Part shown: one piece after another, positions 19,579 to 63,658 of the stretch | Position numbering within the stretch: position 1 is the first letter of the stretch | Layout: each line of letters opens with the position of its first letter | Assembly (NCBI GenBank): GCA_018645265.1 | Contig: JABGOS010000088.1 | Location: 11,083 to 75,082, forward strand | Origin: Deltaproteobacteria bacterium | GTDB lineage: Bacteria > UBA10199 > 2-02-FULL-44-16 > JAAZCA01 | Length of the DNA stretch: 64,000 nucleotides | Direction: 5' to 3' | Notes under the pieces: generated by a model | Databases searched by the model: none | Told to the model about the DNA's origin: nothing | Seen by the model: the letters and a program-made list of their open reading frames with translations, nothing else | Program-made: the position numbers and the translations under genes

Positions 19579-22500
19579 TCAAGCAGGGGTATTCCTTTTC
19601 TTCCTTGAAATTACCCTTGTAGTCATGAGCATCAGCAACGAACCTAGGAGGTAGATTATGCTGGTCGAGCTTCCTGCTGCCTGTCCAGCGATCAGTGAAC
19701 AACCTTCGCGGCTCCACGTCTTCGCGTAGTTCGCGGGGTTACCACCTACCTCGTATCCATCAGGCTGACCGTCGCCATCGGAATCGGCATTTGTCGGATC
19801 AGATTCCAACCAGTTTCCTTTACCATCCTGATCGCGCTTACCGTTACAGTTTAGATCCTCACCAAGTCCGCTTGAAGATGTGAAACCATCTGTCAATCCG
19901 TCTTGATCTGTATCCATCTCGAGTGCGTTCGTTTCGGAACCCATATCGAAGACACCATTCTGGTTCTTATCTTCGCCGAGACTTACTGTTCCATCGGACA
20001 GAGTCATCGGTCCATCAGGAATACAGTCACCATCGGTATCGATATTCGTTGCGTCCGTGCCGTATTTGAGCTCGAACCCATCGTTCAATCCATCATGATC
20101 CGTATCTGCTTCGAAAGGATCCGTCTCACTCAAGTTAGGCTCGTACGTACAGTTATGATTGATATCCTCATCACCATCCCAGACACCATCACCATCAGTA
20201 TCCGGATTCTGAGGATCTGTTCCTAGATCCTGCTCACAGAGATCCGTTAGTCCATCGCTGTCGGAGTCTTTGCCACCAGGGGCACCTTCTCCACCAACAC
20301 AGTTAGGATTGTCATTGAGTCTACAACCAGCTTCTTCTTCAGAATCTTTATTATTGTCAGCATCGGAATCGCGCATACATGGGTTGGAACCATTCCACTC
20401 AACCATGCTTCCGTTATATTCCTCAGCATCCTTCAGACCATCGTTATCGGAGTCCTTCGAACGTGGGTTCGATACCATCGGTATACCACCGATATTGTCC
20501 CAGATCTCTCCATCGATGATCTTCGTCAGGAAGGCCTGTCCTACTACCAAGTCACCAGTTACTTCGACGCCATCCTCAAGGCCATCACCATCCGTATCCT
20601 TGTTCGTAGGATCGGTATCCTGCATCATAGCATCTATACATCCCTCGGATCCCATCTGGTTCAGGTTCACGAGGTTGAAGCCAGGCTGGCCATCACGGTT
20701 CTCTTCACCATCTGGCAGGCCATCACCGTCTGTATCAGCATTACGCGGGTTCGTGTAGATCGGCATTCCATCGCCATTGACCTTCACATGAGTGTTGGTC
20801 TCAGCGAAATCATCTGCACCATCATCATCTGAATCAGCCTTCAGAGGATTCGTTTCAATCAGTGCCAATGCATCCATCGTAATGGCACCCTGAGAGTTGT
20901 CGTTACCATCGAAGCCCATGCCATCAAGATTCTTATCCTCTTGAGCATCGTACAATTCATCCTGATCGCGATCGATGAAGAATGCGAGCACCCTTCTGAT
21001 AGGATCATCAGCGTAGACACTCTTGAAAGGATCACAGCTGTAGTCGACATAAGGATTCTTGTCAGGGCTGTATTCATCGCTCGTGCTACCTGTTGCTGCA
21101 CTTTCAGGACATACATCGATGTTATCAGCAACTGTATCACCATCGGAATCAGCATCCCAGTACTTCAGCATCTGAGACTGAGGTGTCGTACCAGCAGCAT
21201 TCGTTGAATCACACTCTAATGTTGGCTGCTCTACACAATCCGGAATACCGTCACCATCGACATCACCCTGGCAGATACCCATGAGCTGCTCTCTTGTGAG
21301 ACCGTCGATCTCGAATAGATCTGGAACACCGTTCGTATCGTCATCTTTGAGCGCCACCGGCGAACCATCAAGTTCATCCCAGTATACGTACTCGGCATCG
21401 ATACCCCAGAGGATATCCTTAGGATGACATTTATTCTCCTTTTCACATTCCTTTACCTGATCTGCTATGGTAGTAGCAGTTGGTGTTGCATGGAGAGGAC
21501 ACATGTCAACGCCTCTTGGCGTCTTAGTGGTCGAATCGCAAGTAAAGGAAGCTGTCGGTACTGGGATTATGGTAAGATCAACATCTGCATTGATTGTACA
21601 TGTCTTCACACATCCGCCATCCTTGCCAGTTCCACTATTACCACCACCATCACACCAGTGATCACCATCTGAATCCGACTTCCATGGATTCATCTCGTTA
21701 TTATCTATATCAAGGTCACCGTCGAAGTTCGCACGATCACCCAAGCTTCTATTGCGACACATCAGCATCTGTAGGCGTCTCTCCGTCAACTCATCAACAA
21801 CCTCTGCGCCTGAACTGATGTCACCCCAATTACCCTGCTTCGGATCTTCATAGTACGTATCACAGTATGGATCATCCTTAGCACAGGTTACAATGTACCA
21901 CATATATCTGACACCGGTCTTACTCTCATTGCCTGAGCCCAAAGTACACTCGATTGGCTTCTGAGTAGTCTTGCTCTTAATAGGACTGCGAGTATCATAA
22001 GACCCGCCAAACTTGTAGAGCACGCCCTTCGTAACCGAGGTACCTACGCCGGTGAAGAAATGCTGGTTGCGATCTTCCTGGCCATCCCACACTCCATCAT
22101 TATCACTATCTTTATCTAGAACGTTCGGCTGGCCATCACCATCACTATGTTCAGTCATCGTCTCTTTGCCTACGCCATCTGGAATACCATCACCATCTGT
22201 ATCAGGCTCGTAGAAGTTAGTTTCCTTACCTTCATCCCACACGCAATCGCGATCGAGATCCTCATCATCATCCGGCAGACCATCGCTATCGGTATCAAAT
22301 CCCTTAGCTAGACCACCGCCCGTACCCCTGCTCGCTGCATCTGGAATTTTTCTTACGTCACGACAATGCGCGTAACCTGTCATTACATTGGAACCACCAC
22401 TACCCTTGCCACTGAGCGAACCAAATGGAGAGGAAATGTTTACATCCGGACACTGAATGTCAGGATCGTTTTCTGTAGAAGTGATATGAATGATCTTGCT

Positions 22501-23730
22501 CGCCTGACCAACGCCACCGCCGTTCATTTCAGGAACCAATATTATTCTTGAGAAATCGACCGGGACATTAATGCGGAAAGTTCCTGTGGTATTGTCCATA
22601 CCATAATCAACCGCCTTACCTACAAATGCGATCAACTCACCATCTTCCTTAGCAGTTCCACTCTGTGATTTTCCACCAATGGAGTAGACCTGAAGAGCAC
22701 TCAAACCACCGGCAGCTTCATCGGGACAGCTGTCATCGCTCAAACCTTCAACATTAGCAATGTAGCCCTCTATGATTATCGATGATGGAGTTTCATCACC
22801 TGGTTCATAGATAGCACTCTTATCAATAATTCTTACCTGGTACGGCTGCTTCGATGAAATCCAATCTTCAGAACTCTTAAGCTGTGTAATCGAAAGTCTT
22901 GCACCTGTAGAGAGATACATAAAACCATCATCATCCACTGAACTGATTGTGCCTGCGTTAGGAAGGATAAGGTTATTTGCTGACTCTCCAGGGTTATCAA
23001 AGACGATACCACTGTTTTTCGTATTTCTTAAGCTACAGTCAGAGTAAATGACGTTACCAGCAGCTGTCGGACTCATATAGAATCCATCATCTCCACCGTT
23101 AACCTCAACGTGACTGGCAGAGCTATCGTTTCCATAGAAACAAACACCCTTCATCCCATCCGGGATATTCTGAATTTCGAGGTTTTGAATCTCGACCCAG
23201 TCAACGTCCTCTTCTATTATAACCACGCAATCAAATCCCGATGGAATCTCAGCAGCATCGAGGACGGTTCTCTTTCTCTCCGTCACCTCATTGATACAAG
23301 CGCCTGCATCATCCGTCTCATAGCAGACCGTCTCCTCATCCCATGTATCACACGTACCATCGCCGTTGGAATCGTTGAGACATCCGCCGCTTATAACGAC
23401 GTGATGATCGTTCGATCCATCAGCCCTTATAACGAGAGGACCTTTCATGGCGATCCGCTCCTCCGCAATGGCAATCATCTCGCCACATGCGTAGTGCTGG
23501 CTGGTCGGCCCAAGGTTTGCGGAGTGCATTGCGACAGGCAACGTCAGCTTATTCTTATTGCCCGACTTTGCATCCCACTGACTGCTGGTGACCGTACAGC
23601 TCTTCACACTCATGTGATTATACTTGAAGCCTGCGTCGGCTCTAGATGAAATCACAATGGTGAGCGCGAAGACGACTATCGCCAGCGTTATCATGTTTCG
23701 TGATTTTACGTTATGCATGGTTTCCTCCAA
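19579..23730 (-). CDS. Giant (1383 aa) secreted calcium-binding protein with ~25 thrombospondin type-3-like Asp repeats and a C-terminal Cys-containing sorting-like tag
   Basis: Signal peptide. Reiterated DTDGDGxPD, DSDNDGxxD and DTDHDGLND units. The C-terminus reads GCSLIAGQAAGSS, then a hydrophobic helix IIYLLGSLLMLM, then RVISRKKR. Confidence 0.7.
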   Translation of the reverse strand: MEETMHNVKSRNMITLAIVVFALTIVISSRADAGFKYNHMSVKSCTVTSSQWDAKSGNKNKLTLPVAMHSANLGPTSQHYACGEMIAIAEERIAMKGPLVIRADGSNDHHVVISGGCLNDSNGDGTCDTWDEETVCYETDDAGACINEVTERKRTVLDAAEIPSGFDCVVIIEEDVDWVEIQNLEIQNIPDGMKGVCFYGNDSSASHVEVNGGDDGFYMSPTAAGNVIYSDCSLRNTKNSGIVFDNPGESANNLILPNAGTISSVDDDGFMYLSTGARLSITQLKSSEDWISSKQPYQVRIIDKSAIYEPGDETPSSIIIEGYIANVEGLSDDSCPDEAAGGLSALQVYSIGGKSQSGTAKEDGELIAFVGKAVDYGMDNTTGTFRINVPVDFSRIILVPEMNGGGVGQASKIIHITSTENDPDIQCPDVNISSPFGSLSGKGSGGSNVMTGYAHCRDVRKIPDAASRGTGGGLAKGFDTDSDGLPDDDEDLDRDCVWDEGKETNFYEPDTDGDGIPDGVGKETMTEHSDGDGQPNVLDKDSDNDGVWDGQEDRNQHFFTGVGTSVTKGVLYKFGGSYDTRSPIKSKTTQKPIECTLGSGNESKTGVRYMWYIVTCAKDDPYCDTYYEDPKQGNWGDISSGAEVVDELTERRLQMLMCRNRSLGDRANFDGDLDIDNNEMNPWKSDSDGDHWCDGGGNSGTGKDGGCVKTCTINADVDLTIIPVPTASFTCDSTTKTPRGVDMCPLHATPTATTIADQVKECEKENKCHPKDILWGIDAEYVYWDELDGSPVALKDDDTNGVPDLFEIDGLTREQLMGICQGDVDGDGIPDCVEQPTLECDSTNAAGTTPQSQMLKYWDADSDGDTVADNIDVCPESAATGSTSDEYSPDKNPYVDYSCDPFKSVYADDPIRRVLAFFIDRDQDELYDAQEDKNLDGMGFDGNDNSQGAITMDALALIETNPLKADSDDDGADDFAETNTHVKVNGDGMPIYTNPRNADTDGDGLPDGEENRDGQPGFNLVNLNQMGSEGCIDAMMQDTDPTNKDTDGDGLEDGVEVTGDLVVGQAFLTKIIDGEIWDNIGGIPMVSNPRSKDSDNDGLKDAEEYNGSMVEWNGSNPCMRDSDADNNKDSEEEAGCRLNDNPNCVGGEGAPGGKDSDSDGLTDLCEQDLGTDPQNPDTDGDGVWDGDEDINHNCTYEPNLSETDPFEADTDHDGLNDGFELKYGTDATNIDTDGDCIPDGPMTLSDGTVSLGEDKNQNGVFDMGSETNALEMDTDQDGLTDGFTSSSGLGEDLNCNGKRDQDGKGNWLESDPTNADSDGDGQPDGYEVGGNPANYAKTWSREGCSLIAGQAAGSSTSIIYLLGSLLMLMTTRVISRKKRNTPA

Positions 23731-23777: not shown

Positions 23778-24911
23778 TTAGAATACAAACTGCAGAGTGG
23801 CTCCGCCACCGATGCCACCGCTGATCTGTCCCTGATGTCCATTGACATCTGAGTCTGTCGCTTCAAGAACGCTTCTCTCTGAAAAACCTGCGATCGGTAC
23901 ATCGAAGAATACATTACCCATGAGCCTTATGGCCGAGAGAATATCCTCCACACCACCGGTGTTGATCTGGATGCCGGCTGCGAGCATGAATCCGAGAATA
24001 CCGCGTCCCTGCTGTATCGGACCTGTCGCCGTACTGGCGAGATTTGCATATTCACCACCGAGATGGAACTGAGCACCAACTACGAGTGAAACAGAATCAT
24101 GGACCGGGATTACAGGTTCGAGACCTACAAATGCGGTTCCTCTGAAGCCAGCCTTCGGTTCGCTATCTACTGCACCGTTCGATGACATGATGCGGCTGGA
24201 GATAGGAATTCCTAGCAATGCACCGTATGAGAGGAAGAGACCTGAATGCTGCTGTGGCTTTCCCCACATCATAAGGCGACGTCTTCCCTCAAGGCTGATT
24301 TGAACCATGTGGCTAACTGCTCCACCGTCTCCACCCAAATCGCCCATATAGGACATATCACTGAAATCTCCATCGGTACCCTGGACCCATCCGCTACCGC
24401 TGTATCCATAACCAAGGCCCAAAACAAACTGATGCTCATCTACCTTGTCGGCATCTTTCGGTGTCGCTTTGCATGATTTGGAAGCAGCATCAAAAGTTTC
24501 ATCGCTATCACAAGGCTTACATACGCCCGCATCCACTTTCTTGCCTTCAAGAGCACACTCATCAGCAGTCTTCGGCTTCGGTGCGGCCATATCTTTTTCG
24601 ACATCGGCACGCTTCGGCAATGATGGAGCACTTGCCATACCATAAAAGCCAGACATTCCCTTGAACATCGGCAATGGAAGCTTGCCTGTGTGCATCTGGA
24701 AATAATCCTCACACTTAGCTGCGATAGGGGTGCCCTTCGTATGCCCTATGGTGCCGAGAAATTCGGACCAATCCTTCCCTGTGGCATCACCAGCATCAAA
24801 CATCTGTTGATCTGTATCTACCATTGAGCATCTAAATGTGATGCCATCCTTGAAATCCTGACACGCTTTGGTTGTACAACTCTTTAGTGTTCCGTCGCCT
24901 GCTGAAAACAT
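23778..24911 (-). CDS. Cys-rich protein with OMP-like beta-barrel C-terminal half (ends ...GGATLQFVF); no detectable signal peptide
   Basis: Strong RBS (AAGGAGG 7 nt before the ATG). The C-terminal 200 aa have alternating hydrophobic strands and a terminal Phe. Sits immediately upstream of the giant gene on the same strand with a 47-nt gap. Confidence 0.45.
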   Translation of the reverse strand: MFSAGDGTLKSCTTKACQDFKDGITFRCSMVDTDQQMFDAGDATGKDWSEFLGTIGHTKGTPIAAKCEDYFQMHTGKLPLPMFKGMSGFYGMASAPSLPKRADVEKDMAAPKPKTADECALEGKKVDAGVCKPCDSDETFDAASKSCKATPKDADKVDEHQFVLGLGYGYSGSGWVQGTDGDFSDMSYMGDLGGDGGAVSHMVQISLEGRRRLMMWGKPQQHSGLFLSYGALLGIPISSRIMSSNGAVDSEPKAGFRGTAFVGLEPVIPVHDSVSLVVGAQFHLGGEYANLASTATGPIQQGRGILGFMLAAGIQINTGGVEDILSAIRLMGNVFFDVPIAGFSERSVLEATDSDVNGHQGQISGGIGGGATLQFVF

Positions 24912-25289: not shown

Positions 25290-25426
25290 GCTGCACATTG
25301 ACCACTTTTCATACACCTACAAGATTCATATCATTGATATATATGGGTTTTTTATGGAATAAATATTGCTCTCTCACATCTCAAATATCAATCGTAACAC
25401 CTATCCAGGAGGTTATTTTGACCAGA

Positions 25427-26029
25427 ATGCCACTTATCCATATCCCGGGGGGTCTCTACTCTGTGGTCAGCAAATGCAATAACAATGAATTTTTGTTCGA
25501 CTCTAAGGATAAATTCGAGCTGTATCTCAGGCATTTAATGGAGTGTAAGAAAGTGCAAGGCTTCAAGATCTACGATATCGTATGCATGTCGAACCATGTT
25601 CATGAACTGTATGAAGTGCCTGAAAAAGTAACTATCGCTAAAATTCTGCAGCGAGTTAAGGGTAGTTTTGCCATAAAATTCAACGTTATTTACAAGAGAA
25701 GCGGTCATTTCTGGAAGAACAAACCATTTTATAGGGTGGTTGAAGATGAGGAGCACGCCATCGCATGCATCAACTATTTCCACGAAAACCCCACAAGGGC
25801 AGGTATGGTGCTGCATCCATCCCTATGGCCCTTCTCCGGATATAACTTCCATGTACATGGTGATCGAACAGGCCTGATAGGAAAGCTACTTGACCCACTA
25901 CCCGGCTACAGCGAATTCTCGCCATTTGATGAGATGAAGATAGATGTTGAAAAGGTCCTAGGCTCTAAAAAACATAAATTTTTAGGCAGCTCTATCTTTC
26001 AGGAATCTATGAAAACAAAGTACAAATGA
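25427..26029 (+). CDS. IS200/IS605-family HUH/Y1 transposase, REP-associated tyrosine transposase (RAYT)-like
   Basis: HuH motif (MSNHVHEL) and a Tyr motif followed by NP.RAG (YFHENPTRAGMV). AGGAGG at 25407-12. The track ORF 25259.. extends 5' across the REP copy and an AT-rich tract, which is unlikely to be coding. TTG at 25418 is an alternative start. Confidence 0.65.
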   Translation: MPLIHIPGGLYSVVSKCNNNEFLFDSKDKFELYLRHLMECKKVQGFKIYDIVCMSNHVHELYEVPEKVTIAKILQRVKGSFAIKFNVIYKRSGHFWKNKPFYRVVEDEEHAIACINYFHENPTRAGMVLHPSLWPFSGYNFHVHGDRTGLIGKLLDPLPGYSEFSPFDEMKIDVEKVLGSKKHKFLGSSIFQESMKTKYK

Positions 26030-44228: not shown

Positions 44229-45881
44229 TTACAGATACTTAAGACTTGGAATGATTTTACGAGATCCGTAAAATAGGATACAAGGCATGATGAACATGAA
44301 AACAATATAAAGATATATCGATAAATTTGACTTCGATCTTACGTCATTGGCTATAAACGAACACGCCCCCCCATCCGCAGCGCCTGCGAAATGACCGCTG
44401 CCCCCAGCGCTCGTCTTCTCTTCAGGACTCTGAGCAGGTGAACCACCCCCTCCTCCGCCAGCAGCTACATCGTCTGGACAGACTTTCGTCTTGGGGTCGT
44501 AGACATCCGGTATCCCATTTGTATTCGCATCGAGCCATCCCCCCTCCATGAGATCGGGACATGAATCACCATCCGAGTCACCATCCCTGGCATTCGAAAC
44601 ACCATCACAATCGATATCGGTTAGCATTTCTGGTGAAGAACATTCACCCTCTCCAATAACCATTCGATAATCGAAATCCGGTATACCATCCCCATCAAAA
44701 TCACCCAGAGTTTCGACACCATCGCTTAAGCCGTCGGAATCTGTATCGACTATCGAGGGATCGCTCTCATTGTGATCGACCCAACCATTTGCATTTAAAT
44801 CCTCCAGACCATCCTCCAGGCCATCGCCATCGGAATCCGGATTGAGAGGATTCATCTCGTTAGGTTTTTTAAAATTCGTTCCGGATGGCTGAAGGCCATG
44901 GCATCCGTTGTATGATATCGGCTGGATCCTTCCCATCTCCACCCCATCAGACAGGCCATCACCATCGGTATCGCATTCATTTATGAGAGTACCTGCTCGA
45001 ACCTCGTCACCATCGGAGACACCATCACCATCCGAATCAGCCCTGATAGGATCAGATTCAGATGAACCGTTTATCTCACCATCTCCATCGCGATCCCCTT
45101 CCTCACCATCTAGAAGGCCATCGTTATCTGAATCAGGATTCAATGGGTCCATCTCCAGCCAAATGACATGTTCCTCATCCTCAGTAAGTTCACCATCACG
45201 AAGACCATTGAAATTAGGGTCTTCAAGTCCATCAACAACTCCATCATCATCGGTATCGTCGAGACTTGGATCGGTCATACTGCTGACGTCGAGGTCGAAC
45301 AGCGCGGCTACGTTATGAATACCTGGCAAAGAATCATCATATGAAATTACATTTTCAAATGCCGACACTAGATTGTCATCCAATATTTTTTTACAGCGCG
45401 ATGTCGGAATATACTTAGGGCGACTTGGCATACGATCAATCAGTTGCAGCAGTTCTTCCTTCGTAACCCCCACCTCGACACCGTCAGGAATACAGTCACC
45501 ATCGGAATCACTTTTTAGAGGATCGAGTCGATCTGGAAAGCGAATGCGAACTTCTTCATTACCCAAAAGCTCTTCCACCCTGCCAATATGAAGGCGCTCC
45601 TCACCATCGCTCAAGCCATCTGCATCGGAATCTGGATTGTTTAAATCTGTCTCACCATTTTCAGGCTCCCAAACTCCGTCACCATCATGGTCCTCAGCCT
45701 CATCTAGCAGACCATCGCAGTCGGCATCCATGTTACAACCATCACTCTCAACCGTAGCGGGTTCACCATCAGCCGCAAATGCATCGGGAACAATAGATAA
45801 GGAGAGAACAATAAGACCCACCACAATAAGCAGCGCAACGTTATGGCCAATAAAGACCATTATTTTAATAGCTCTATTCAT
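44229..45881 (-). CDS. Secreted calcium-binding protein with thrombospondin type-3-like Asp repeats (550 aa) and C-terminal Cys-containing sorting-like tag
   Basis: Signal peptide. Repeats DSDADGLSDG, DTDDDGVVDG, DSDGDGLEDG and DTDSDGLSDG. A Gly-rich spacer is followed by GGACSFIAN, then TM IYLYIVFMFIMPCILFY, then GSRK. Confidence 0.65.
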   Translation of the reverse strand: MNRAIKIMVFIGHNVALLIVVGLIVLSLSIVPDAFAADGEPATVESDGCNMDADCDGLLDEAEDHDGDGVWEPENGETDLNNPDSDADGLSDGEERLHIGRVEELLGNEEVRIRFPDRLDPLKSDSDGDCIPDGVEVGVTKEELLQLIDRMPSRPKYIPTSRCKKILDDNLVSAFENVISYDDSLPGIHNVAALFDLDVSSMTDPSLDDTDDDGVVDGLEDPNFNGLRDGELTEDEEHVIWLEMDPLNPDSDNDGLLDGEEGDRDGDGEINGSSESDPIRADSDGDGVSDGDEVRAGTLINECDTDGDGLSDGVEMGRIQPISYNGCHGLQPSGTNFKKPNEMNPLNPDSDGDGLEDGLEDLNANGWVDHNESDPSIVDTDSDGLSDGVETLGDFDGDGIPDFDYRMVIGEGECSSPEMLTDIDCDGVSNARDGDSDGDSCPDLMEGGWLDANTNGIPDVYDPKTKVCPDDVAAGGGGGGSPAQSPEEKTSAGGSGHFAGAADGGACSFIANDVRSKSNLSIYLYIVFMFIMPCILFYGSRKIIPSLKYL

Positions 45882-46081: not shown

Positions 46082-46966
46082 ATGTCATCGATATGTAACC
46101 CTCTATCGGGGGAGAAACGCGACTACTGCATGGCACTCGATCAACAGTGCGATGCACTCCTCTCTGGGGACAAGAAGAGCATCAAGCTCGATTTGATGAA
46201 CGGTAAGTCATACAACTATACCGATATCGATCTATGCCGATCCTTCCTAAAATTTCAAGTGACGCACGGTGCAGTACCACCAGGCTTTAAAGAAATAAAG
46301 AGAACGACTGGGGGAACAACACCTACGACTACATACACGCCCAAAAGTACACCTTCCACAGATCTCGTTGCAAAAAGATGCATTGCAGCCGTACCTGTCG
46401 GAGTTCTTCCGGAATGCCAAAGACTGATGTCCATATGCTATTCGAAAGCGACTGGACCTTACCAACTTCCAACTAGCAGCGGCTTACAAACAATAGCTGA
46501 TCAGGACCAATGCTTCTCATTGGCTATATTTTATTCAAAATTCAGTGCACCCACTACAGACACGACCTATATCTCGACTGACACGAAACCGGGATGGACT
46601 GTGAATGGCAAGACAACTTTTGCAGCCAGCTTTGCAAGGGTCAGATTCGCACCCAATAAGAGTGAAGTAATCCACACACAGAAGCTAACTCTACCATTTC
46701 ATTATGGATGGACGATAAAGGGCATCAAAATCACAATTGCATATAAGTTACAGCAAAGAAGCGATTCTCGATATGCTATCCGCTACAACATCTATTACGG
46801 CGATACAAAAGTACCGGATAAAATCACAGATATGGACCTAACGAGGGCAGTAGGATTTGGATTCAAAGCTGGCGATACTATGACGGATATCCTCTCCTTT
46901 GGCGTAACGCTAGGCAATGAAGGCGATTTCGGAAATATCCAATCTATAGATATCGTAAAACTATAA
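46082..46966 (+). CDS. Hypothetical Cys/Thr-rich protein
   Basis: No recognisable motifs. Divergent from the 550-aa TSP3 gene. An in-frame upstream stop fixes the start. Confidence 0.4.
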   Translation: MSSICNPLSGEKRDYCMALDQQCDALLSGDKKSIKLDLMNGKSYNYTDIDLCRSFLKFQVTHGAVPPGFKEIKRTTGGTTPTTTYTPKSTPSTDLVAKRCIAAVPVGVLPECQRLMSICYSKATGPYQLPTSSGLQTIADQDQCFSLAIFYSKFSAPTTDTTYISTDTKPGWTVNGKTTFAASFARVRFAPNKSEVIHTQKLTLPFHYGWTIKGIKITIAYKLQQRSDSRYAIRYNIYYGDTKVPDKITDMDLTRAVGFGFKAGDTMTDILSFGVTLGNEGDFGNIQSIDIVKL

Positions 46967-53324: not shown

Positions 53325-53846
53325 TCAAGAATATGATACCAAAGAATGAATCGGCACATCACCGATCTTCTCCCGACCATTCAAGAAAGCCAGTTCAACA
53401 ATGAATGCACATTCAACTACGTCACCACCCTGTCTCTTTATCAATTCGCATGCCGCACCTGCTGTACCACCGGTTGCCAGCAGATCATCGATGATCAACA
53501 CCTTCTCACCTTTTTCAATAGCATCTGTATGCATCTCAATAGTTGCGGAGCCGTACTCCAAATCATATGAGATATCAATAGTCTTGTAAGGCAATTTACC
53601 TTTTTTCCTAACCGGGACAAAGCCTGCACCGAGCTGATGCGCAAGTGGCGTTCCGAATAAAAAACCTCTCGACTCTATACCAACAACAGTATCGATCTCC
53701 TGATCCACATATCTCTCAACTAAGCTTCTAATAGTCTCTTCAAAAGCTGCGTGGTTCTGAAGCAATGGAGTTATATCCTTAAAAACGATCCCTGGTTTGG
53801 GAAAATCGGGGATATCCCTGATGTGTTTCTTAAGTCTATCCTGCAT
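53325..53846 (-). CDS. apt: Adenine phosphoribosyltransferase
   Basis: [25 protein letters not shown]-binding [13 protein letters not shown]. Confidence 0.9.
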
Positions 53847-59406: not shown

Positions 59407-60501
59407 TTAAGCCATATTCGGAGCATCTGCTTCAGACTGTTCCTGTGAATTTTTCAATCGATATACATAGACTAATATTTCCGCAATCGCAGCGTAGAGG
59501 TCCTCTGGAATTTCATCGCCAATGTCCAATTCAATCAAAGTCCAAGCAAGTGGGACATTCTCAATAATGGGAATGCCATAATCCTCGGCGTATTCCCTGA
59601 TGGTTTGTGCAAAGAGACGCTGCCCCTTCGCCATAATCTGCGGCGCTGCCATCTCCGAGTCATCATATTTGATCGCTATAGCCAACTCTGTTGGGTTGGT
59701 AATCACCGCATCCGCAGATTTCACTGACTGCTTCGTATCGCTCATCGCTAACTCCTGGTGGAGCTGACGTCTTGCACTCTTTATGAGTGGATCACCTTCA
59801 TCCTGTTTGTACTCCCTCTTCACCTCCTCCTTTGTCATCCTCATCTGTTTTTTATAATTCCACCGCTGAACGAAGAGATCGATAATAGCTATCATAATGA
59901 AGACGATAAAAACCTTCACCAAAAACTCCACAAGGAGCTGTGCGGCAAGCGCGCCAGACTGGTCGGGCGTACCCTTCACAGTCAACACGACTTCCCTCAG
60001 CCTATTGGTCACAACGAGATATGCCAGAAGAAAGATGAGGCTCATCTTTGCTATATTCTTTAAGAGCTCCACAAGGGTCGTAATCTTAAACATATTTTTA
60101 AGATTCTCTATGGCATTTATCCTCTTCATCTGGGGCTTCATCGATTCACCGGTAAAGATAGGACCAACCTGGAAGAAGCCCACTGCTATGGCTACCACGA
60201 TCATAACTATCCCAAATGGTATAACGATTTTCACATAGGTCATAAAATTACTGTGCGCTTGTAGGAATAATGTTTCGACATTCAGATCCGGCCTTGAGAT
60301 CAAATTGAAATTGGAGGTCAGCACTCCACGCAGCTGCTCACCGATATACCCCCTCATGAAGAGTATCGTTATGAATGCCGCTATAAGGATTACTATAGTG
60401 TTGAGATCGCGGGATTTTGCGACCTGTCCCTTCTTTCGCGCATCCCGCAGCCGCTTCGGTGTAGCTTCCTCAGTTTTTTCCTGGCTGCTTGATTCTCCCA
60501 T
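59407..60501 (-). CDS. flhB: FlhB/YscU-family type III export apparatus protein (orphan)
   Basis: N-terminal EKTEEATPKRLRDARKKGQVAKS. Four TM segments. The autocleavage-site region reads NPTE in place of NPTH. Confidence 0.75.
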   Translation of the reverse strand: MGESSSQEKTEEATPKRLRDARKKGQVAKSRDLNTIVILIAAFITILFMRGYIGEQLRGVLTSNFNLISRPDLNVETLFLQAHSNFMTYVKIVIPFGIVMIVVAIAVGFFQVGPIFTGESMKPQMKRINAIENLKNMFKITTLVELLKNIAKMSLIFLLAYLVVTNRLREVVLTVKGTPDQSGALAAQLLVEFLVKVFIVFIMIAIIDLFVQRWNYKKQMRMTKEEVKREYKQDEGDPLIKSARRQLHQELAMSDTKQSVKSADAVITNPTELAIAIKYDDSEMAAPQIMAKGQRLFAQTIREYAEDYGIPIIENVPLAWTLIELDIGDEIPEDLYAAIAEILVYVYRLKNSQEQSEADAPNMA

Positions 60502-60684
60502 TCAGTGCTCCTGTATATATTATCGGCAGTGAAGTTACCAAAAATTGCTTCATCCAGCAAGAAATGCCGGCAAAACTGACAAATTGATGTTGCTGACATA
60601 TAAGATTAAATTCTTCTTCATTTTTAGCCCCCCCTGATCGGCCTGGCCTTGCTTTTCTTTAAAAATACCGGTATCTTGCGGCGG

Positions 60685-62742
60685 ATGGCTCAAACGACAC
60701 AAGACAAGCAACCGAGACAGGTAGGCCAGTATTACCTCATGGAGAAGATTGCCCAGGGCGGCATGGCTGAGATCTTCAAGGGGCTCTCCTATGATGTCCA
60801 CGGCATAAAGAAAACGGTTTGTATCAAGAAGATCCTTCCACACATCGCTGCCAGTGAGGAGTTCATCGACTCTCTGATAGATGAGGCGAAGATCGCCGTT
60901 AAACTCGTTCATGGAAACATCGCCCAAACCTATGATCTGGGAAAGGTCGCCGACGACTATTTTATGGTTATGGAATATGTCGATGGCAAGTCACTCTCCC
61001 AAATTCATAAGCGTTGCCTTGCAAAGAAGGAAGTTATACCGATTCATCATCTGGTACACTTTATATCGGAAACTCTCAATGGGCTTGACTATATTCATAG
61101 GAGGACAGATGAGAACGGTCTGCCACTTCATATAGTGCATCGTGACATCAGCCCCCAAAATATAATGGTATCGTATGCAGGTACCGTTAAGATAATCGAC
61201 TTTGGAATAGCAAAGACTGGTTTCAAGGTTGGATCTACCGACTCTGGCATTCTCAAGGGGAAATTCGCATACATGTCCCCAGAGCAGGCACATGGGGATA
61301 CTATAGATCACCGTTCAGATATTTTTTCCTTAGGCATCATACTTCACGAAACGCTGACCGGAAAAAGGCTCTTCAAGGCGGGCGATAGCAGGGAGACAAT
61401 TAGGAATGTGAGGAAGGCAAAGGTCATTCCTCCCTCGGTAATAAGAAATGACCTCCCTGATGAACTTGACCGTATCGTCCTCAAGGCACTCTCAAAGGAC
61501 AGACGACATAGATACAAGAAGGCAGCGGAGATGCACGACGATCTGATAAAGTTTCTATATTCAAATTACCCTGAATTCAGGCCATCGGATGTTGGAACGT
61601 TCGTACAGGATCTTTTTAAGAATGAACTTCAGAACCAGGGCAAGAATGAGGCCGACGCCAAGACACCTTATTTAATCATAGATAGATCAAACTCTGCACT
61701 CGCAGACGATAGTCAATTTGAAGTCACAGGAGCGGCGAAAGCCCCTATCGACCTTGAGGAGTTTATGGTCGAAGAGGATAGTGAATCCGTACCTAAGGAT
61801 ATGGTACCCTATTCCGACAATGAAATGGAGGAATATAGGGATGGACCTGAAATCCCAAAAGAAAGCAAGTTCAAGTACGTATGGGATATTGTAAAACACA
61901 TTAAATATCATCTTTTAGTGATTTTTATAATTGCCATAGTGACTACTCTAGCAGTCATATCCAACAGAAAATCGGAAATTACAGAAGATAATACTGTAGC
62001 TTACACATCAGCAGAAATCATGATCACTACCGAGCCTGCCGATGCATCGATCGTCTTTAACAATAAGCCGATTGGGCAGGGATCCCCTATTACGATGCGA
62101 GATATCGATCCAAATGCTGACCATTTGTTGGTGGTCCAGAAAGAGGGATTCTTCACACACGAAAAACATCTCAATCTAAAACCTGGCGAGTTCTTAAGCC
62201 TCTCCATAGCCCTCAAGCCAAAGCCCCCCATGACATCGGCAATAGAGCTTACAACCATTCCAGAGGGTGCGACAGTTTTTCTGGACAACCGGGAAACTGC
62301 ATACCGCACACCGACAAACATAAAGGATATAGACCCCAAGCGGTCTCATGACATTGGTCTTTTTCTGAGGGGCCATCGTTTTTGGAACAAAAAAATCAAT
62401 CTAAAACCAGGAGAAACAAAATCCTTTGAGATTCAAATGGTCAAAGATTTTGCCACACTCAATGTCGAATCAGAGCCCCCTGGGGCACTCGTCATGCTTG
62501 ATGGCGTTCCAATAGGGCAGACCCCCGTCACAAGGGAAAAACTTGAACCGGATAAGGTTTATAAGGTAGAAGTATGGGTCCAGGGGTATGAGGCAACCAA
62601 GAAGGACTATAAAGCAGTTGCAGGTGTAAAAAAGGGACTTAGGTTCATCCTGAAGAAGATGCCCACACCCGCAGAATTAGAGATGAAGGCTAGGGAAGAG
62701 AAAAGAGAGATGATGCACCAAGAGGAAAAAGATGACCGATAA
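60685..62742 (+). CDS. Hanks-type Ser/Thr protein kinase with TM segment and C-terminal PEGA repeat domains
   Basis: GxGxxA loop (GQGGMAEIFKG), HRDISPQNIMV, DFGIAK, SPEQ. TM segment LLVIFIIAIVTTLAVI. Four or more PEGA-like units (TTEPADASIVFNNKPIGQ...). Start set at ATG 60685. The first 36 nt of the track ORF are probably not coding. Confidence 0.8.
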   Translation: MAQTTQDKQPRQVGQYYLMEKIAQGGMAEIFKGLSYDVHGIKKTVCIKKILPHIAASEEFIDSLIDEAKIAVKLVHGNIAQTYDLGKVADDYFMVMEYVDGKSLSQIHKRCLAKKEVIPIHHLVHFISETLNGLDYIHRRTDENGLPLHIVHRDISPQNIMVSYAGTVKIIDFGIAKTGFKVGSTDSGILKGKFAYMSPEQAHGDTIDHRSDIFSLGIILHETLTGKRLFKAGDSRETIRNVRKAKVIPPSVIRNDLPDELDRIVLKALSKDRRHRYKKAAEMHDDLIKFLYSNYPEFRPSDVGTFVQDLFKNELQNQGKNEADAKTPYLIIDRSNSALADDSQFEVTGAAKAPIDLEEFMVEEDSESVPKDMVPYSDNEMEEYRDGPEIPKESKFKYVWDIVKHIKYHLLVIFIIAIVTTLAVISNRKSEITEDNTVAYTSAEIMITTEPADASIVFNNKPIGQGSPITMRDIDPNADHLLVVQKEGFFTHEKHLNLKPGEFLSLSIALKPKPPMTSAIELTTIPEGATVFLDNRETAYRTPTNIKDIDPKRSHDIGLFLRGHRFWNKKINLKPGETKSFEIQMVKDFATLNVESEPPGALVMLDGVPIGQTPVTREKLEPDKVYKVEVWVQGYEATKKDYKAVAGVKKGLRFILKKMPTPAELEMKAREEKREMMHQEEKDDR

Positions 62743-63658
62743 AAAGAAAAAAGAGATAGATCCACTTCTTCAGAGCGATGAGTTGTCCGAATGCACTGTA
62801 GTAACATCATTGGAGAAGGTAAGTTTTCCAAAGGATGAACGCGCTTACATACTCTTCATTTCAGGCCCCCTAATTGGTAAAATGTACCTTCTTGAAGAAT
62901 CTACAACAATCATGGGCAGGGCTCCGGATATTGATATCTCTATTAGCGATTCAAGAATATCCAGAAAACATCTCTGCATACACCTTGAAACAGGTAAGGC
63001 AATCATTGAAGACATGGGCTCCACCAATGGAACCTTCGTAAACGGTGAGAGGGTTATACGGCGAGTGCTAGAAAATGGCGACAAGGTTCACATATCCAGC
63101 GATACCTTCTTTAAGTTTGCTGTAGGTGATGCGGCAGAAAGAATGTTTCAGGAGGAGATGCACCAGATGGCGAACTACGACGCCGTCACCGGCATACTCA
63201 ACAAACATGCATTCGCAAGACGCCTGAGGGAGGAGTTCAGCTATGCAAGAAGAAGAAAGCACTCCCTCTCACTCATGATGATCGACATAGATTTCTTCAA
63301 GAAGGTCAACGATACATATGGGCATATGGCTGGTGATTATGTCCTAAATGGAGTTGCACAAAGAATCCAAAGCAGCCTTCGTGATGAGGATATTACAGCT
63401 AGATACGGCGGCGAAGAATTTGCAATTATTCTTCGAAATACGGATGCCAAAGACTCGATGATGTTGGCGGAAAGAGTGCGTCATCTGATTGAGGAGAAAC
63501 CCTTCCAATTTGAAGATCAATCGATACCTGTGACAATCAGCGTTGGGGTATCCACACTCAAAGGCGACAACTTCAACTCCGCAAAAAAACTCATTTCTTA
63601 TGCCGATGAGTGCCTATACAAGTCCAAAGCTGATGGAAGAAACCGCGTAACCGCATAA
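62732..63658 (+). CDS. FHA-domain diguanylate cyclase (FHA-GGDEF)
   Basis: FHA core (GR....D.....D..ISRKH...........D.GSTNGTFVNG). GGEEF active site with an upstream RDED I-site-like motif. Overlaps the kinase stop by 11 nt. Confidence 0.8.
   Translation: MTDKKKKEIDPLLQSDELSECTVVTSLEKVSFPKDERAYILFISGPLIGKMYLLEESTTIMGRAPDIDISISDSRISRKHLCIHLETGKAIIEDMGSTNGTFVNGERVIRRVLENGDKVHISSDTFFKFAVGDAAERMFQEEMHQMANYDAVTGILNKHAFARRLREEFSYARRRKHSLSLMMIDIDFFKKVNDTYGHMAGDYVLNGVAQRIQSSLRDEDITARYGGEEFAIILRNTDAKDSMMLAERVRHLIEEKPFQFEDQSIPVTISVGVSTLKGDNFNSAKKLISYADECLYKSKADGRNRVTA

Follow-up and report, generated by a model that had tools for sequence, protein, structure and literature searches.

The 64,000-nucleotide stretch of contig JABGOS010000088.1 analyzed here (the window) encodes a 550-residue secreted TSP3-repeat protein that ends in a short conserved tag. 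The tag is probably a Cys-containing tripartite sorting and anchoring signal on a Sec-exported, calcium-binding surface protein. Its parts, which follow a flexible linker, are a Gly-rich motif around an invariant Cys, a hydrophobic helix, and a short terminus with basic residues. Judged by sequence, its nearest known kinds are the Cys-class signals MYXO-CTERM and JDVT-CTERM rather than the signals of sortases and exosortases, and it is not a member of either family as currently defined. The evidence lies on the substrate side and covers the anatomy of the tail, its conservation, the N-terminal signal peptide, and the nearest known models. A giant TSP3 protein encoded elsewhere in the window has a tail of the same design that has diverged in sequence.

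Anatomy of the C-Terminal Tag

The product of the 550-residue gene is 100% identical to NCBI protein HN337_05000, which belongs to a metagenome-assembled genome labeled 'Deltaproteobacteria bacterium'. Its TSP3_bac domain (Pfam PF18884) scores 29.1 bits against a cutoff of 25, and the gene contains approximately 10 TSP3-coding DNA repeat units. The protein also matches the NCBIfam model gliding_CglD in part, with an E-value of 3e-36 and a score far under the model cutoff. The match is to CglD and MtsD, gliding and adhesion proteins of Myxococcus; the secreted protein is taken to be calcium-binding and similar to these two. A hydrophobic 12-mer is present at the N-terminus of 117 of 124 homologs.

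The final 56 residues and the stop codon are encoded by 44229..44400 on the minus strand, and the last 82 residues read VAAGGGGGGSPAQSPEEKTSAGGSGHFAGAADGGACSFIANDVRSKSNLSIYLYIVFMFIMPCILFYGSRKIIPSLKYL. The original prediction described a poly-Gly/Ser/Pro/Ala linker, a Cys motif, a hydrophobic helix, and a basic end in this region, and all four are present where it placed them (Table 1). The tripartite anatomy behind a flexible stalk that it compared with sortase and exosortase signals is likewise supported. Ahead of the motif, the linker reads VAAGGGGGGSPAQSPEEKTSAGGSGHFAGAA, and its Gly run is retained in orthologs as the alignment consensus GGGGG. The codon of the invariant Cys507 lies at 44361..44363 (minus strand). 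All 15 orthologs in the alignment share G504 and C507, and conservation of D503 and A506 is 90% or higher.

The AlphaFold2 (AF2) model of the protein has an overall predicted local distance difference test score (pLDDT) of 55, which is poor and leaves the model too uncertain for a fold search. It places an N-terminal helix at residues 2-34 and a second helix at residues 514-543 with pLDDT of approximately 70, while residues 471-519 have pLDDT below 50 and are modeled as disordered.

Table 1. Positions of the two tag-bearing genes, the parts of their products, and the divergent neighbor (window coordinates)
Feature	Position	Strand	Basis
Gene of the 550-residue secreted TSP3-repeat protein, tag carrier	44229..45881	-	open reading frame list, Pfam
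N-terminal signal peptide, residues 1-36 (…LSIVPDAFA / ADGE)	45774..45881	-	read from sequence; cleavage site putative
Flexible Gly/Ser/Pro/Ala linker, residues 469-502 (PDDVAAGGGGGGSPAQSPEEKTSAGGSGHFAGAA)	44376..44477	-	alignment consensus, AF2
Signature motif D503-G-G-A-C507-S-F-I	44352..44375	-	ortholog alignment
Polar spacer, residues 511-519 (ANDVRSKSN), sequence variable	44325..44351	-	homolog tails
Hydrophobic transmembrane helix, residues 520-538 (LSIYLYIVFMFIMPCILFY)	44268..44324	-	hydropathy scan, AF2
Short basic end, putatively cytoplasmic, residues 539-550 (GSRKIIPSLKYL), and stop codon	44229..44267	-	sequence
Gene of the giant TSP3 protein, 1379 residues when counted from the ATG start of the NCBI and JGI records	19579..23718	-	
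Sub-variant tag of the giant protein: E-G-C1340-S-L-I, AGQAAGSSTS spacer, IIYLLGSLLMLMTT helix, and RVISRKKRNTPA	19579..19707	-	
Divergently transcribed 294-residue partner gene	46082..46966	+	no Pfam match; no signal peptide

Conservation of the Tag in the 550-Residue Family

A total of 120 homologs of the 550-residue protein were gathered, and 100 of them have the full tail design, each with the invariant Cys (100/100). Ahead of the Cys, the consensus is D or G at position -4, G at -3 (89%), G at -2 (67%), and A at -1 (75%); after it, S, T, A, or Q occupies +1, L occupies +2 in 87%, and V, I, L, or M occupies +3. The other approximately 40 residues of the tail are free to vary, save for the hydrophobicity of the helix and the terminal R/K cluster. 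The hydrophobic core is a median of 13 residues away from the Cys. At least two R/K residues follow the helix in 73 of 78 family tails, with an R:K ratio of 170:72. Charged residues occur within the helix in 31/78 tails, and a second Cys adjacent to the first (GCGC type) occurs in 1/78.

An alignment of orthologs had been named as the test that could refute the tag. In it, the C-terminal similarity stays above chance, with an invariant Cys and conserved flanks in the midst of an unconserved region. Two details of the original prediction held in part. Its CS-x-IA consensus contains C-S-[L/F], which lies within the conserved motif, but the I-A portion is coincidental when the 100 homologs are compared. 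The Pro-Cys pair that it pointed out in the helix is present in the 550-residue tail, but its position is not conserved in the family, where the hydrophobic core contains Pro in 46/92 tails and Cys in 29/92.

A profile was built from 76 homolog tails, excluding both tails of the window, and scored against the last 70 residues of 8012 open reading frames, drawn from the window and from the loci collected by then. The 550-residue tail is matched with an E-value of 2.7e-8, and with 2.1e-6 when full-length open reading frames are scored. The tag of the 550-residue protein is beyond chance. The top false positive of the profile is adenine phosphoribosyltransferase (53325-53846, minus strand; L084:20-541 in a related genome), which contains GGTAGAAC-x-LI and serves as a caution for anyone modeling the tag. 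A search with the tail-only profile against 1.84 billion proteins returned two matches at E-values of 1e-3 or lower, one TSP3 family member and one junk repeat; this search is uninformative because a profile of 46 positions has too little power against so large a library. Genome contigs were also scanned with the ortholog alignment by way of generic TSP3 peptide patterns; the matches listed came mostly from unrelated phyla, with two close loci (L002 and L003), and did not include the metagenome-assembled genome of the window.

The gene found between topA and xerC encodes proteins of 323-909 residues across related genomes, while its C-terminal Cys motif is constant. The spread in length arises from the number of repeats and from an extra N-terminal beta-helix domain, as seen when the window is compared with related loci L084, L082, L089, and L090. 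Proteins of 323, 382, 536, 550, and 909 residues are positional orthologs, despite looking like separate classes.

The Giant TSP3 Protein

The 1379-residue protein ends in WSREGCSLIAGQAAGSSTSIIYLLGSLLMLMTTRVISRKKRNTPA. Its TSP3_bac match scores 19.5 bits, which is under the cutoff of 25, and it aligns with the 550-residue protein at 31-32% identity. The two proteins are distant paralogs, colinear through the TSP3 repeats to the C-terminus at 31% identity.

The tail of the giant protein scores 12.8 bits against the profile of the 550-residue family (E-value 0.04, rank 5), a marginal match that lies just above two adenine phosphoribosyltransferases. The status of this tail as a tag rests on the eight orthologs of the giant protein. 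These orthologs are 33-83% identical to it, and all of them keep (N/R)EGCS[L/I/M], a Gly/Ala/Ser spacer, the helix, and RRMKK; the helix begins with a conserved S-M-F-Y-L-L-G. All nine tails of the giant family match the profile, and 14 other TSP3 proteins do not. The original prediction had called the tag of the 550-residue protein a second copy of that on the giant. The same design is present in both proteins, but the two tails share no DNA similarity and differ in sequence; they are two sub-variants of one design rather than two copies of one sequence.

Relationship to Known C-Terminal Sorting Signals

When 80 family tails were scanned singly against NCBIfam, the most frequently matched families were JDVT-CTERM (11/80, best E-value 9e-4) and MYXO-CTERM (6/80), and the matches were weak. 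Models of the PEP, LPXTG, and GlyGly signals match 1-3 of the 80 tails each, including PEP-CTERM with 3/80 and GlyGly-CTERM with 1/80 (E-value 0.13). At E-values up to 10, the two window tails match no Cys-type, PEP, GlyGly, or PGF model; VPAMP-CTERM and LPXTG match the giant tail only, below their cutoffs. One distant homolog carries the NCBI name MYXO-CTERM. As positive controls for the MYXO-CTERM model TIGR03901.2 (cutoff 20), the TraA peptide scores 20.6 bits and a Myxococcota TSP3 protein scores 26.9 bits.

Homologous TSP3 passengers in other lineages end in modules of their own. The Myxococcota TSP3 protein ends in MYXO-CTERM (26.9 bits), a Flavobacteriia TSP3 protein carries a type IX secretion system type B sorting domain (40.8, cutoff 35), and a Corallococcus TSP3 protein carries an OmpA/TraB-like C-terminal domain. 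That these passengers end in the anchoring module of their own lineage supports the view that the window tail is the anchoring module of its lineage.

MYXO-CTERM is the signal processed by the myxosortases MrtX, MrtC, and MrtP in Myxococcota and Bradymonadales. Like the window tag, it lies at the extreme C-terminus of surface proteins with signal peptides, behind a disordered linker, and it has three parts: a Gly-rich motif with an invariant Cys in it, then a helix, then a basic cluster. Both are found on adhesin passengers resembling TSP3, CglD, and MtsD proteins. The window tag is in register with the MYXO-CTERM of TraA, which reads GGAFCC followed by a 13-residue spacer, a helix, and RPRRPAR (TraA sequence: PMC11980579), so that the length of the spacer between Cys and helix is also close to that of TraA.

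The two also differ. The window tails fail the hidden Markov model TIGR03901.2, with no match at E-values up to 10. MYXO-CTERM is described as often having GCGC and as having a helix without Pro or charged residues (Haft 2023, bioRxiv 10.1101/2023.06.07.544157), whereas the tails here have a single Cys in the motif (an adjacent second one in 1/78), Pro in half of the helix cores (46/92, the window's MPC included), and charged residues in 31/78. The window tag is further distinguished by a conserved aliphatic pair after the Cys, C-x-L-[V/I/L/M], and by a basic cluster that mixes R and K. MYXO-CTERM has many unrelated clients, with 3-73 per genome, whereas the tag here was seen on one protein family at fixed loci; the tagged clients in the 64-kb window are two, both TSP3-repeat paralogs. 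The host belongs to an uncultured lineage; NCBI labels its metagenome-assembled genome and the relatives only 'Deltaproteobacteria/Pseudomonadota bacterium'.

JDVT-CTERM (NF033191), with its protease MrtJ (NF033192), resembles the window tag in that its one Cys is invariant, its design is tripartite, and its targets in a genome are few. It is the commonest weak model match of the family tails, and the window tails themselves have no match to it. Unlike JDVT-CTERM, the tails here lack the near-invariant Asp-Pro approximately nine residues past the Cys (0/78 tails have DP at +7 to +12). A CPBP gene is adjacent in 16/17 JDVT systems (Haft 2023, bioRxiv 10.1101/2023.06.07.544157), whereas none adjoins the tag genes within ±10 kb on the window contig or at seven related loci, and JDVT-CTERM has one client per genome where the window has two targets within 25 kb.

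GlyGly-CTERM (TIGR03501), which is paired with rhombosortase, and PEP-CTERM, which is paired with exosortase, are also tripartite C-terminal signals of surface proteins that are secreted by Gram-negative bacteria, and the motif here contains Gly-Gly. The window tag differs from both in its invariant Cys, its long spacer between motif and helix, its lack of a PEP motif, and its negligible matches to their models.

Proposed Sorting Pathway

The proposed pathway begins with the N-terminal signal peptide, which would take the protein across the inner membrane by the Sec route. With its basic end on the cytoplasmic side, the C-terminal helix would then retain the protein in the inner membrane, and the disordered Gly/Ser/Pro linker would present [D/G]GGAC[S/T/A]L[V/I/L/M] at the periplasmic membrane surface. 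By analogy with characterized systems, the invariant Cys would be modified, probably by lipidation, and an intramembrane endopeptidase would cleave just past it, shedding the helix and basic tail; the candidate enzyme is an Rce1-like CPBP glutamic protease of the 'Mrt' type. The mature protein would remain tethered through its modified C-terminal Cys and be displayed on the cell surface, a step that the published model assigns to a type II secretion system. The giant protein, with its diverged version of the design, would use the same pathway.

Cys-containing C-terminal signals have only recently been tied to Rce1-like proteases. In M. xanthus, MrtX cleaves MYXO-CTERM, and cleavage requires the Cys (Guo, Haft and Wall 2025, PMC11980579). 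Lipidation of the Cys by an enzyme yet to be identified, followed by export through the type II secretion system, is the working model (PMC11980579; Haft 2023, bioRxiv 10.1101/2023.06.07.544157). For the window proteins, modification of the Cys, cleavage and the protease behind it, and display on the surface are all carried over from this model and would follow if the analogy holds.

Several observations weigh against a sorting signal of this kind. Neither window tail reaches the threshold of any NCBIfam C-terminal sorting model, and the basic cluster of the 550-residue tail is weak, with just one R and two K. The tag was seen on TSP3-repeat paralogs only, and no further tagged open reading frame occurs in approximately 136 kb of sequence comprising the window and the scored loci of the lineage. 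Seen on one paralogous family, the tag may be a general sorting signal or may belong to a system dedicated to that family. Pfam tables list no CPBP (PF02517), rhomboid, or exosortase gene in approximately 81 kb of the 158-kb contig, and there is none within ±10 kb of the seven related loci. A scan of all open reading frames in the window and in more than 85 fetched loci (85+) for the CPBP motifs EExxxR, FxxxH, and HxxxN/D together with transmembrane segments also found none. The absence of a protease near the tag is weak evidence either way because housekeeping myxosortases are never encoded beside their clients (Haft 2023, bioRxiv 10.1101/2023.06.07.544157).

Alternative Explanations

The absence of a nearby processing enzyme and the confinement of the tag to one protein family, of which it could be a specific C-terminal domain, would also suit a plain membrane anchor that is never processed. 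The 550-residue protein would then be a type I inner-membrane protein whose Gly-Gly-Ala-Cys forms an intermolecular disulfide or binds metal. The product of the divergent neighboring gene is Cys-rich and is a possible disulfide partner; it has no signal peptide, however, and would not meet a periplasmic Cys. This explanation is unlikely in view of orthologs that lack the helix and still strictly keep GGGxCSL[I/V] (described below). In addition, the motif lies at the end of a disordered linker, as is typical of enzyme recognition sites, and the best model matches of the family are to Cys-type sorting signals that are processed.

A processed signal could instead be served by an enzyme outside the CPBP family, either a rhombosortase-like protease acting at Gly-Gly in the style of GlyGly-CTERM or an enzyme of a kind so far unknown. 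Gly-Gly precedes the Cys in most tails, weak GlyGly-CTERM and PEP-CTERM matches occur (1/80 and 3/80), and the cognate enzyme has yet to be named. The motif of GlyGly-CTERM abuts its helix, whereas approximately 13 polar residues separate motif and helix here, and the invariant residue is Cys rather than Gly. The P-E-P motif is missing from the tag, and neither a rhomboid nor an exosortase gene occurs in any neighborhood examined. An enzyme of this sort is improbable, and more so than a plain anchor.

A chance likeness of the two window tails, in which hydrophobic C-termini share a short peptide match and no function, could appeal to the marginal score of the giant tail near two false positives and to the coincidental 'IA' match, yet it is very improbable and has largely been refuted by the ortholog alignments, in which each tail is conserved among its own orthologs and the invariant Cys is equally far from the helix in both, and by the selective match of all nine giant-family tails to the profile.

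Orthologs Lacking the Helix

About ten positional orthologs of approximately 900 residues have signal peptides and stop 5-7 residues past the Cys, without a helix or basic tail. They include P0070 (L082:12641-12730), P0063, P0064, P0068, P0069, P0072, P0079, P0088, and P0089. These proteins strictly keep Y-Y-S-R-Q-I-K-G-G-G-x-C-S-L-[I/V] and end in, for example, GGGSCSLIVE, CSLIMD, CSLVIP, or CSLVVGR. The stop codon of P0070 is real in the DNA, which reads TGC AGT CTC ATC GTC GAG TGA, with rplU beginning 57 nucleotides downstream, and the protein is present on five contigs. Since the helix-less orthologs strictly keep the Cys motif, the motif is selected independently of the membrane anchor.

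Because positional orthologs at the topA-xerC locus keep GGGxCSL[I/V] and yet stop so soon after the Cys, GG-x-C-[S/T/A]-L-[V/I/L/M] may be an extracytoplasmic equivalent, in bacteria, of the CaaX box. The motif would be a self-sufficient site of lipidation and cleavage, and the helix and basic tail would be an optional delivery device. This proposal is speculative and rather doubtful. Within the proposed sorting pathway too, the CaaX-like motif and the short orthologs would fit recognition by an enzyme of the CaaX-protease type.

The CaaX box of eukaryotes and archaea, which is served by Rce1 of the CPBP family, consists of Cys-aliphatic-aliphatic-X, and the C-[S/T/A/Q]-L-[V/I/L/M] found here resembles it; the CaaX box of lamin A, for example, is CSIM. 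The helix-less proteins, with their ends 5-7 residues past the Cys, share the short C-terminus of CaaX proteins. In contrast to the CaaX box, the setting here is extracytoplasmic, since the proteins bear signal peptides. The Cys is followed by 5-7 residues, or approximately 40 when the helix is present, rather than exactly three, and no prenyltransferase or protease is linked to the tag.

At L082, a gene for a 7TM-transglutaminase (PF01841 and PF14402) with an ATP-grasp gene lies approximately 2 kb downstream of the helix-less tag gene (L082:14558-17791), and a DsbD-type thiol-disulfide transporter is encoded approximately 8 kb downstream. Both are membrane enzymes that act on periplasmic proteins, and they are probably unrelated to the tag.

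Gene Neighborhoods

Both tag genes are fixed and syntenic in housekeeping neighborhoods. The gene of the 550-residue protein is found in the order dprA-topA-(divergent partner)-tag gene-xerC-hslV-hslU, which L084, L089, and L090 also have; L082 and L087 have part of it. The giant gene follows a Y1-transposase-like gene and a gene for a protein of 360-377 residues, and it precedes a TPR gene and rpsB-tsf-pyrH-frr-uppS-cdsA-dxr-rseP; this order recurs in L085 and L086. The original prediction had raised the possibility that linker and tag form a mobile module. Comparison of the final 360 nucleotides of the two genes by blastn and blastn-short gave random 7-8-mers alone, and with both genes in conserved housekeeping neighborhoods, the tag is not a mobile module.

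The neighbor at 46082..46966, which had been taken for an orphan, has homologous genes at the same position in L084, L089, and L090. A gene of this family lies between topA and the tag gene in most of the related genomes examined (window, L084, L087, L089, and L090). A word-indexed search finds one relative, with 63% identity, and the family becomes visible through direct comparison of positional neighbors, in which the partner matches L089 at 30% identity (E-value 4e-18), L090 with an E-value of 1e-9, and L084 with an E-value of 6e-5. The neighbor at this position in L082 has no similarity to the other partner genes. With identities ranging from 22 to 63%, the partner is a fast-evolving, positionally conserved family. 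In the Cys-rich protein, a Cys-containing helix-hairpin module is repeated internally, and the C-terminal half after it is rich in beta structure (low-confidence AF2 model, pLDDT 55, too uncertain for a fold search).

A gene for a Gly-rich protein of 377 residues (23778-24911, minus strand) lies just upstream of the giant gene in the same orientation, with 59 nucleotides between it and the giant's ATG. This protein has no Pfam match and no recognizable signal peptide, and its C-terminus, GGGATLQFVF, resembles the signal of outer-membrane beta-barrels. A 360-residue gene product at the same position in L085 is weakly similar to it (24% identity over 154 residues, E-value 0.005). By analogy with TraB and TraA, the 377-residue protein may be a partner of the giant. 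The Y1_Tnp gene that adjoins the giant locus (25343-26029, plus strand) is of the REP-associated tyrosine transposase-like kind and has the same position in L085 and L086.

Elsewhere in the window, a lone FlhB/YscU-type export gene (Pfam Bac_export_2; 59407-60501, minus strand) has no further genes for flagella or type III secretion in its surroundings. Genes for a Ser/Thr kinase with a PEGA domain and for an FHA-GGDEF protein with a YscD-like cytoplasmic domain adjoin it (60649-62742 and 62732-63658, both plus strand).

Implications

Cys-type signals have been described as restricted to Myxococcota and Bradymonadales (MYXO-CTERM), some Pseudomonadota (JDVT), Synergistetes, and Thermococcales. 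The variant described here occurs in an abundant uncultured lineage and goes unrecognized by current models; it would widen the range in which the system is known and would supply annotators with the seed of an alignment for modeling it. What recognizes the Cys motif is a question on which the helix-less forms have a direct bearing; if the comparison with the CaaX box is correct, the lineage provides a natural series of proteins with and without the helix, which could be used to identify the Cys-modifying enzyme of MYXO-CTERM-type sorting. In practice, annotation of both the giant and the 550-residue protein should read surface-anchored and adhesin-like instead of hypothetical.

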